A DNA stretch of 64,000 bases from positions 96,001 to 160,000 of the IMG/VR virus record IMGVR_UViG_3300019776_000919. The stretch is one strand, 5' to 3'. Under the pieces are notes generated by a model, which was given only the letters and a program-made list of their open reading frames with translations, did no database searches and had not been told where the DNA came from. This DNA comes from a virus. Positions 2,920 to 60,975 of the stretch are shown here, piece by piece. Each line of letters begins with the position of its first letter. Position 1 is the stretch's first letter. Both the position numbers and the translations under genes were made by a program.

Positions 2920-2999
2920 GTTCTGCCTTTCGTGCAGTTGAGTGGTGGTGAAGGAAGATGGTAGGACGTACTGGATTCGAACCAGTGACCATCGGATTA

Positions 3000-3656
3000 C
3001 TTACTACTCCAGTTTTCACTGGCTGATTTTCATCATTGTAGTCTGGACTATATCATCACCTTCTGTCTTCACAGTTAAGGTGTCTTGCTCGTAGTCTCTG
3101 AGGACTCTCATAACGTCTAGGTAATCTGATAGCAAGTTTACCTTGCTATTCTGCCCGTTCTTAGGAGGATCGGCTCTCAGTGTCAAATGTGAACCTGTTG
3201 TTTTCAACAGCTCATCGTTTCTAATCCAAGCAATCTTGTCATCATCAACGCAGTAAACTGCATATATTTGACAATCTTTCATGTTGTATTGAAACCTATA
3301 ATTTGGCCCTGATTTCCAACCGCATACTGAATAAACCCCGTTTGTTTTAGTTACGGTTTTTACCTGTATGCCTATCAGCTTTGACTTTACTTCAAGCACT
3401 AAGTCTATTCTTGAGATATCACCGAGTTCGATGAATACTGAATATCCTAAGGCCAAAAGCTCAGTCGCTACTTTCATTTCTCCTAAATTACCTAATCGCT
3501 TAGTGTGCATAATCTTTTGGATTATACATCACAAGTTGCCTGCTGATTGACCAATCCTTTAGATTTTTACGACTGGGGTCGTACTAAAGGCTCTAAGGTT
3601 ATTCCAGCATATCGCAAGATTTTCATTCACATATTTCTATGTGACGCTTCCAATCA
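3000..3656 (-). mobile_element. group I intron in the tRNA-Lys anticodon (between positions 35 and 36)
   Basis: Exon ends in U, intron ends in G; P1 CUUU/GAAG with U.G at the splice site; P (AUGCUGGAA), Q (AAUCAGCAG), R (UCAGAGACUA), S (GAUAUAGUCC); P3 UCUUGC/GCAAGA. Confidence 0.92.
3016..3510 (-). CDS. intron-encoded PD-(D/E)XK homing endonuclease (I-Ssp6803I-like)
   Basis: GxxGE...GY.V...G....ID...IQVK motif pattern; located inside the intron, with its 3' end overlapping the R/S core elements. Confidence 0.85.
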   Translation of the reverse strand: MHTKRLGNLGEMKVATELLALGYSVFIELGDISRIDLVLEVKSKLIGIQVKTVTKTNGVYSVCGWKSGPNYRFQYNMKDCQIYAVYCVDDDKIAWIRNDELLKTTGSHLTLRADPPKNGQNSKVNLLSDYLDVMRVLRDYEQDTLTVKTEGDDIVQTTMMKISQ

Positions 3657-3737
3657 AAAGTCCGGTGCTCTACCAACTGAGCTAACGTCCCAAATTTGCA
3701 ACCTAGTATTTTACACTAGATTCTAATCGAAATCAAA

Positions 3738-5914: not shown

Positions 5915-6262
5915 AAGGTGCCCCTCCTTTGAGGCACGGTACTCTTACAAAGCAAGGCTCCTTGCGAACAAGGATCTTGGGAGGGGCATCTGAACTAGAA
6001 GGAAACTCCTAGTTCAGAACTTCGGTTCAGGCTGCGAGAGCCTGGACATAGCTGCTGTCATTGGCAGTTACTTGTTTACCTACATGTTTAACGAGCATAC
6101 AGGCTGGCTCGTGTTGTAGTCTAAGATACTAATCTGTCAATCGAATGCCTAGTCACCCCCATTGAACAGCTTAATGGTGGAGGTGCCCGGAATCGAACCG
6201 GGGTCTTGCCAGTTGTTCTCTCTTTCTTTCAGATGAGCGAACTCATCACACAACAATTCTTT
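5915..6262 (-). ncRNA. ssrA: circularly permuted (two-piece) tmRNA; tag (A)ANDSSYVQALAA
   Basis: Acceptor piece ending ...TTCGATTCCGGGCACCTCCACCA (6175) lies upstream of the coding piece starting GGGGGTG (6160); G3.U70 pair; tag ORF 6065-6027. Outer ends are approximate. Confidence 0.92.
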
Positions 6263-6335
6263 TAAAGGTCCAACTTCTACCTTTTTACTACTACATAACC
6301 GCAGGTGATACCTCTAACACCCTCGCTATGTTTAG

Positions 6336-7913: not shown

Positions 7914-7943
7914 CTTATACCATGTATATTACAACTTATTGAA
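7914..7943 (-). promoter_or_regulatory. conserved promoter heading the tRNA/ncRNA island
   Basis: Exact TTCAAT-N15-TGGTATAAG just upstream of the first tRNA. Confidence 0.8.
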
Positions 7944-60945: not shown

Positions 60946-60975
60946 CTTATACCAATATTACAACTTTATATTGAA
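60946..60975 (-). promoter_or_regulatory. conserved promoter
   Basis: Exact TTCAAT-N15-TGGTATAAG. Confidence 0.8.

Follow-up and report, generated by a model that had tools for sequence, protein, structure and literature searches.

A group I intron, probably mobile, in the anticodon of a phage tRNA-Lys(UUU) gene, and its I-Ssp6803I-family endonuclease

The virus record IMGVR_UViG_3300019776_000919 of IMG/VR is a complete genome of 169,713 bp with terminal repeats, and the stretch considered here ("the window") comprises 64,000 nucleotides of it, positions 96,001 to 160,000. The minus strand of the window carries the only tRNA-Lys gene of this uncultured phage, a tRNA-Lys(UUU) gene, and the anticodon of that gene is split by a group I intron that is very probably mobile and that brings with it a putative homing endonuclease of the I-Ssp6803I family. 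Standard tRNA finders overlook the gene, with the result that the phage would be annotated as being without a tRNA-Lys, and group I introns with endonucleases in phage tRNA genes are still poorly documented in print.

The split tRNA gene and its ribozyme

With introns disallowed, neither the window nor the entire genome yielded a tRNA-Lys in ARAGORN; with introns allowed, the program called a single split tRNA at 2959-3691, labelled as Gln because it put the intron at the eukaryotic position. For placement of the junction, eight anticodon-loop positions were scanned for a U on the 5' side of the splice site, U(-1), and a G ending the intron, G(omega). Position 35/36 alone of the eight gave both together with a seven-nucleotide loop, CUUUUAA. 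The exons joined in silico (3691-3657 with 2999-2959) form a 76-nucleotide molecule that ARAGORN calls tRNA-Lys(ttt), with acceptor, D and T stems fully paired and four of the five anticodon-stem pairs formed. A first-pass annotation of the same DNA, made without database searches, had proposed a tRNA-Lys(UUU) with a 657-nucleotide intron at 35/36 at these coordinates, and both ARAGORN and the junction test bear this out in full.

Nearly the same exon sequence also exists uninterrupted. A 33-nucleotide pattern covering the uninterrupted site matched ten viral contigs, and intron-less tRNA-Lys(UUU) genes identical at 74 of 76 positions to the predicted spliced tRNA are present in contig L165, in a phage array of 14 tRNA genes, and in contig L173, where the gene adjoins a tyrosine integrase at the contig end (an arrangement typical of prophages integrated at bacterial tRNA-Lys genes, which may be the setting here). 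In both alleles it is positions 27 and 43 that differ, opposite each other in the uppermost part of the anticodon stem. The uninterrupted sequences thus confirm the exon junction independently and, compared with the window, amount to a presence/absence polymorphism of the intron.

Helices P1 to P10 can be read in the intron, in agreement with the earlier description of clear P1, P3 and P/Q/R/S elements. The P3 strands, UCUUGC and GCAAGA, are separated by 525 nucleotides; P4 is UGCUGG/UCAGCA and P7 is GACUA/UAGUC, and P5 has an additional P5a/P5b extension. To evaluate this structure, 12 complete pre-tRNAs were aligned and scored for the 84 pairs named from the window. The proposed partners were paired in 95.9% of cells, versus 31-46% when the 3' partners were slid by one to three columns, the covariation score was 0.53 versus 0.05-0.11, and not one observed measure was matched by any of 500 shuffles. 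Two-sided (compensatory) changes were found in 56 of the 84 pairs, with one such pair each in P4 and P7; the P7 helix of relative L132, for example, reads GGCCA/UGGUC. Short matches to the DNA of Bacillus and Acinetobacter phages fall in the 5' core of the ribozyme. Chance is excluded by the covariation among the 12 homologues together with intron-less alleles that match the predicted joined exons, and the ribozyme is regarded as real and under selection. From these features the intron would be expected to self-splice.

The endonuclease, its overlap with the ribozyme, and probable mobility

The intron contains an open reading frame (ORF) whose product matches Pfam family PF11645 over residues 1-130 at 76.4 bits (cut-off 26.1; E 2.9e-21). 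In a search of the PDB the sole clear sequence match was 2OST, which is I-Ssp6803I, with E 0.008 for the single sequence and 5.5e-7 with the family profile. Residues D36, Q49 and K51 align with the D-L-V ... Q-V-K of 2OST (the D...QxK motif), and among 15 homologues D36 and Q49 never vary, while K51 is kept in at least 90%. An AlphaFold model built from the homologue alignment has a predicted local distance difference test (pLDDT) value of 81.3, and its top Foldseek match is again 2OST_A, with E 7e-10, template modelling (TM) scores of 0.71/0.78 and about 21% identity. Family, fold and motif therefore agree with the PD-(D/E)XK endonuclease that had been suggested at first pass.

The terminal codons of this frame, 135 to 164, double as the ribozyme core from P6' to P9a, again as first proposed, and the frame is free of stops until the UGA in the P9a loop. 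Mean column identity across the nuclease domain is 0.69 at first, 0.75 at second and 0.54 at third codon positions, whereas in codons 136-140 and 151-158 third-position identity is 0.93-1.0, as high as at the first and second positions. These frozen third positions in the overlap therefore reflect conservation at the RNA level. In the protein alignment the overlap is seen as two invariant motifs, RVLRDYEQ.T and GDDIVQTT. Residues 144-164, a 21-residue tail, are predicted to be disordered, and free-standing relatives of the enzyme, 131-142 residues long, end in ...KVLG precisely where the intron-borne frame enters the ribozyme. The tail encoded by the ribozyme appears to result incidentally from read-through and not to belong to the enzyme.

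Introns of this family reside in tRNA-Lys genes with widely differing acceptor and T stems and an anticodon arm that is mostly CGGA/UCCG. Such divergence among host tRNAs would be expected under lateral spread, and varied stems around a constant anticodon arm would fit an enzyme that reads the arm. Cleavage by the endonuclease of intron-less tRNA-Lys genes in competing phages or in the host is plausible.

The following course of events is proposed. The gene would be transcribed into a 733-nucleotide precursor in which the intron adopts a standard P1-P10 ribozyme fold, with the guide pairing with exon bases C32-U35 so that the U35.G wobble marks the 5' splice site. Free guanosine would attack that site, omega-G (window 3000) would dock, and the exons would be joined to give a normal 76-nucleotide tRNA with the loop CUUUUAA. 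Because the endonuclease frame extends across the 3' half of the ribozyme, translation and ribozyme folding would be mutually exclusive on one RNA molecule. The enzyme most likely recognizes the near-palindromic DNA CGGA-CUUUUAA-UCCG, the uninterrupted tRNA-Lys anticodon arm, in a phage infecting the same cell and possibly in the chromosome of the host; a cut is predicted at this site, and the intron would spread when the break is repaired with the intron-bearing copy as template.

Several observations weigh against this interpretation. The endonuclease ATG lacks an evident Shine-Dalgarno sequence; no syntenic intron-minus relative of this phage was found in viral contigs; the Rfam group I model RF00028 does not call the intron in the window at its gathering score of 50 bits; and a C27xA43 mismatch tops the anticodon stem of the spliced tRNA. 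Exact-peptide searches of viral contigs with the endonuclease and with the neighbouring 148-residue gene product likewise found no close relative. A 14-base pattern across the intron/3'-exon junction gave more than 120 chance matches and no split tRNAs, and a stricter pattern gave no matches.

The unclear ribosome-binding site, the missing intron-minus allele at the equivalent position in a related phage, and the predicted disorder of the ribozyme-encoded tail are what might be expected if the ribozyme splices but the encoded protein is not a homing enzyme, being either inactive or engaged in another role such as RNA folding, within an intron that is inherited vertically and does not move. This alternative appears unlikely. 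The ORF is intact and keeps D36, Q49 and K51 along with further residues of the family, third positions in the nuclease domain are the least conserved, as for a protein under selection, the structural model is confident and matches I-Ssp6803I, and near-identical intron-less alleles do exist. No maturase is known to have the PD-(D/E)XK (I-Ssp6803I-like) fold, which also counts against this alternative. Since no close relative without the intron is available at the same position, we infer homing in this lineage from unrelated contigs.

It is far less probable that the gene is dead, i.e., a tRNA-Lys pseudogene broken by a decaying intron that does not splice. The anticodon-stem mismatch and the low Rfam score could be taken in that sense; however, mismatch at 27:43 is common to three further members of the intron family, and the score is accounted for by the 400-nucleotide ORF in L6, which splits the model so that a permissive scan yields two separate matches, of the 5' half (3418-3667, 20.1 bits) and of the 3' half (3021-3256, 23.4 bits). 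In the comparison with a group I model that the first-pass annotation had named as a check, both halves were matched, each below the gathering value. Relatives with ORF-less introns score higher with RF00028 (45.6 bits for the tRNA-Lys of L140, 61.5 for a tRNA with UAA anticodon in the same contig, and 66.8 for a tRNA-Leu(UAG) of L151). In the window intron all helices are intact and in step with the family covariation, the U.G wobble and omega-G are both in place, and the split gene is the phage's sole tRNA-Lys gene. Equally improbable is splicing at 34/35 or 36/37, which would give the same or nearly the same mature tRNA but place the intron in another class: the run of four U leaves the exon boundary ambiguous at the DNA level and near relatives such as L007 are spliced at 34/35, but a U before the 5' site, a terminal intron G and a seven-nucleotide loop coincide at 35/36 only, and within P1 the partner of U34 is A and that of U35 is G.

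Inside the intron, a TATAAT hexamer (window 3521-3526, minus strand) precedes the endonuclease ATG by 10 nucleotides. TATACT and TAGAAT stand 6-7 nucleotides before the ATG in the two closest relatives, which are likewise without a Shine-Dalgarno sequence. The hexamer might serve as an internal promoter for a near-leaderless mRNA. Table 1 gives the positions of the features described.

Table 1. Parts of the split tRNA-Lys(UUU) gene, its intron and the endonuclease frame, in window coordinates.
Feature	Position	Strand	Basis or remark
Split tRNA-Lys(UUU) gene; pre-tRNA of 733 nucleotides, CCA encoded	2959-3691	minus	ARAGORN with introns allowed, same coordinates
5' exon, tRNA positions 1-35, 3' end CUUU	3657-3691	minus	Sole U(-1)/G(omega) solution; in-silico splice
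P1: exon C32-U35 and intron U36 with guide GGAAG; U35.G splice wobble; loop GAUU	3647-3660	minus	
Group I intron, 657 nucleotides, omega-G at 3000	3000-3656	minus	Sub-threshold RF00028 half-matches; covariation in 12 homologues
P2 hairpin, 7 bp, GAAA loop	3627-3644	minus	6 of 7 pairs compensatory
P3 5' strand UCUUGC	3614-3619	minus	Partner 3083-3088; 100% of cells paired; 5 of 6 pairs compensatory
P4-P5-P5a-P5b domain including P and Q elements	3541-3609	minus	P5a: 7 of 7 pairs compensatory
Homing endonuclease ORF (putative function), 164 residues, PDDEXK_5; start in P6 loop, UGA in P9a loop	3016-3510	minus	Pfam PF11645
Dual-coded stretch: codons 135-164, also P6', J6/7, P7, P3', P8, P7', P9 and half of P9a	3016-3108	minus	
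P6 3' strand, J6/7 and P7 5' strand (R element CCUCAGAGACUA)	3092-3103	minus	Almost invariant in 12 homologues
P3 3' strand GCAAGA	3083-3088	minus	Covariation
P8 hairpin	3059-3080	minus	7 of 8 pairs compensatory
P7 3' strand UAGUC, inside S element	3046-3050	minus	Covariation
P9, GAAA loop	3024-3035	minus	
P9a, GAAA loop	3009-3022	minus	5 of 5 pairs compensatory
Candidate P10: 3' exon AAUC with intron GAUU	2995-2998 with 3652-3655	minus	Read from sequence alone
3' exon, tRNA positions 36-76 (UAAUCC...CCA)	2959-2999	minus	Splice and junction test; uninterrupted in L165 and L173

Relatives of the intron and other elements of the phage

The splice site is not fixed within the intron family. In the window and in relatives L154, L009, L159 and L131 an xGAAG guide, with U34-A and U35.G, is accompanied by a 3' exon beginning UAA, whereas L007, L010, L156, L158, L155, L139 and L132 have an xGGAG or AAGAG guide with the wobble at U34.G and a 3' exon beginning UUAA; relatives spliced at 34/35 have the guide AGGAG with the wobble on U34. 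The UUAA, 34/35 form is also found in the ORF-less introns of L140 and L152 and in L160, a contig from a metagenome-assembled genome (MAG). Wobble position and 3' exon start differ jointly, and therefore the boundaries shift together between 34/35 and 35/36, leaving an identical mature anticodon loop. In the junction test L010 was unsettled and the stem of L158 was one base off register, so that the sites of these two were taken from other evidence. In the endonuclease tree L007, spliced at 34/35, is sister to the 35/36 clade of the window, and the shift has thus occurred between close relatives. A like endonuclease-bearing intron at 35/36 is present in tRNA-Lys(CUU) genes of three MAG contigs labelled Acidobacteria and Chloroflexi (L161:1257-2046, L162:1296-2049, L163:1262-2039). 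As a separate observation, contig L157 (about 600-1330) has a family intron with endonuclease at 34/35 in a gene whose joined tRNA has a UUU anticodon and a long, type II-like variable arm, and for which ARAGORN makes no call.

A protein search with the window ORF gave 18 relatives at 40-61% identity; in the contigs of these relatives, and in viral and MAG loci drawn from the protein alignment, nearly all show the same arrangement in a tRNA-Lys gene. Among 22 viral loci, the enzyme gene is in or beside tRNA-Lys(UUU) at 21, and one has no tRNA-Lys nearby. It lies within the tRNA-Lys(UUU) intron at three loci, right after a tRNA-Lys with an ORF-less intron at two (L140, L152), and free-standing, 0-89 nucleotides from an intact tRNA-Lys(UUU), at 16. 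Free-standing PDDEXK_5 genes beside tRNA-Lys(UUU) occur in large phages, on contigs of up to 452 kb (L133, L134, L137, L138, L141, L142, L144, L146-L151). Of the intact tRNA-Lys genes beside free-standing enzymes, those tabulated (10/14, in a partial table) are without the CGGA/UCCG anticodon stem, and they may represent immune alleles. A maximum-likelihood tree built from the nuclease domains requires the enzyme to have switched between the free-standing and the intron-borne state five or more times on well-supported branches; the midpoint root was used for drawing only and no direction is claimed for the switches. Among records of cultured phages only distant relatives of the enzyme are found, at no more than 33% identity.

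Beside the tRNA-Lys locus of L140 there is a further split tRNA (1926-2199) with a UAA anticodon and a short, five-nucleotide variable loop, interrupted at 34/35 by a 200-nucleotide group I intron (the 61.5-bit match given above). The endonuclease gene of this contig is located between this tRNA and the intron-bearing tRNA-Lys. In both L140 and L152 a standard transfer-messenger RNA (tmRNA) gene directly follows the tRNA-Lys endonuclease gene.

Host anticodon nucleases are known to act on tRNA-Lys(UUU), which is the target of PrrC; no link was found between the intron and PrrC. Taken jointly, these arrangements could be accounted for by a PD-(D/E)XK lineage acting as a "tRNA-Lys driver" that cycles among free-standing genes, genes beside an ORF-less intron and genes within the intron, while the splice site slides between 34/35 and 35/36 through paired changes in the guide and in the first base of the 3' exon, and the intron shields the phage tRNA-Lys from rival enzymes. 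This joint reading, the slide mechanism included, is put forward tentatively, as possible but somewhat more doubtful than not. If true, the loci would line up as naturally occurring stages in the origin that has been proposed for mobile group I introns.

Other elements of the same phage were noted in passing. A second split tRNA gene, with anticodon CAU, is at genome positions 91732-92280 on the minus strand, 3.7-4.3 kb before the start of the window (loci L002 and L006). It corresponds to an elongator Met or Ile2 tRNA, being not initiator-like, and is interrupted at 36/37 by a group I intron without an ORF, about 473 nucleotides in length (RF00028, 46.2 bits). The 3' part of this intron and the 3' exon share 73% identity with their tRNA-Lys counterparts, and a G1.U72 pair is common to both split tRNAs. 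The gene for a family A DNA polymerase is cut into at least three pieces by two group I introns (genome 62169-62467 and 62815-63073, locus L004; 78.5 bits each). A permuted, two-piece tmRNA occupies window positions 5936-6267 on the minus strand (Rfam tmRNA_permuted, 81.5 bits; ARAGORN tag ANDSSYVQALAA).

The motif TGGTATAAG, a phage promoter motif, has 10 exact sites in the window, all on the minus (coding) strand (e.g., 1600-1608, 7914-7922 and 60946-60954), and 32 sites versus 15.6 expected when one mismatch is allowed. It is located upstream of the tRNA-Ser and, as TGGTATAAT, of the tRNA-Asn genes, and is absent from the intron and from the region directly upstream of the tRNA-Lys gene. 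A sigma-70-like site upstream of the tRNA-Lys gene (3736-3708) was considered and set aside, as it is no better than chance.

Relation to known systems

Reviews recognize four classical classes of bacterial tRNA intron, in Leu(UAA), fMet, Ile2(CAU) and Arg(CCU), the same hosts named at first pass. Williams 2020 (bioRxiv 10.1101/2020.01.27.920355) extended the four to 21, and the alignment of that work includes, from bacteria, the seeds Mle24.Lys.3Ug, at 34/35, and Mpe6.Lys.4Ug, at 35/36. The window intron has the features of Lys.4Ug, namely tRNA-Lys exons, insertion after loop nucleotide 4, U(-1) and G(omega), and its family shares the isotype and insertion sites of Lys.4Ug and Lys.3Ug. The initial view of an uncommon host tRNA and site thus stands against the four classical classes and gives way before the Lys 34/35 and 35/36 introns of this bacterial catalogue. 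To that extent, with tRNA-Lys and both sites already catalogued for bacteria, the novelty of the window intron is limited. The Williams 2020 assemblies are bacterial and archaeal only, and its text does not mention endonucleases for the Lys classes, whereas the window is from a phage and has an intact PDDEXK_5 gene running over the ribozyme core. What the present analysis adds is this intact I-Ssp6803I-type gene fused into a ribozyme, the family-wide evidence for a one-base slide, and the association of the enzyme lineage with tRNA-Lys.

For phages, a 2014 review placed every phage intron then known in protein genes, despite the many tRNA genes of phages (PMC3984707), and Devoto et al. 2019, describing Lak megaphages, stated that introns in phage tRNAs had not previously been reported (PMC6784885). 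The "group I introns" of 22-49 nucleotides described in 2017 in cyanobacterial tRNA-Lys(CUU) genes (PMC5733544) are too short for ribozymes and are not considered prior art.

The closest counterpart of the enzyme is that of the tRNA-fMet intron of Synechocystis PCC 6803. PF11645 is the I-Ssp6803I family (PMC3424549), and I-Ssp6803I, as a tetramer, recognizes a pseudo-palindromic target in the tRNA gene (PMC3384342). The Synechocystis element is likewise an anticodon-loop group I intron with a PF11645 enzyme of the same fold (2OST) and D...QxK motif; it differs in being from a cyanobacterium, in tRNA-fMet and at 33/34 ("fMet.2Ug" in Williams 2020), as compared with Lys, 35/36 and a phage for the window, with about 21% identity between the enzymes. 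The IC3 tRNA introns, i.e., those of Leu(UAA) in Anabaena and plastids at 34/35 and of Ile(CAU) in Azoarcus and Arg(CCU) in Agrobacterium at 36/37, are small, have the same P/Q/R/S motifs, and interrupt exons that keep the anticodon stem, as in the window. They contain no ORF and occupy other isotypes and sites. The likeness of the window intron to tRNA introns of this subgroup is one of core motifs.

Free-standing relatives of the window enzyme, within 100 nucleotides of tRNA-Lys(UUU), have a setting similar to that of T4 SegB, a free-standing homing endonuclease in a tRNA cluster (PMC2330249), although SegB is a GIY-YIG enzyme and that of the window is PD-(D/E)XK. The collected family offers a compact experimental system for the merger of an enzyme gene with a ribozyme, for a one-base shift of a splice site, and for a possible part of such enzymes in phage competition over a tRNA that is also targeted by host defences. 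For cyanophage psbA, "collaborative homing" between an ORF-less intron and a neighbouring endonuclease gene was reportedly described in 2009 by Zeng, Bonocora and Shub and by Bonocora and Shub. L140 and L152, in which the enzyme gene follows a tRNA-Lys with an ORF-less intron, are alike in arrangement, and the window, with the enzyme gene inside the intron, corresponds to the fused end state of the pathway proposed for collaborative homing.

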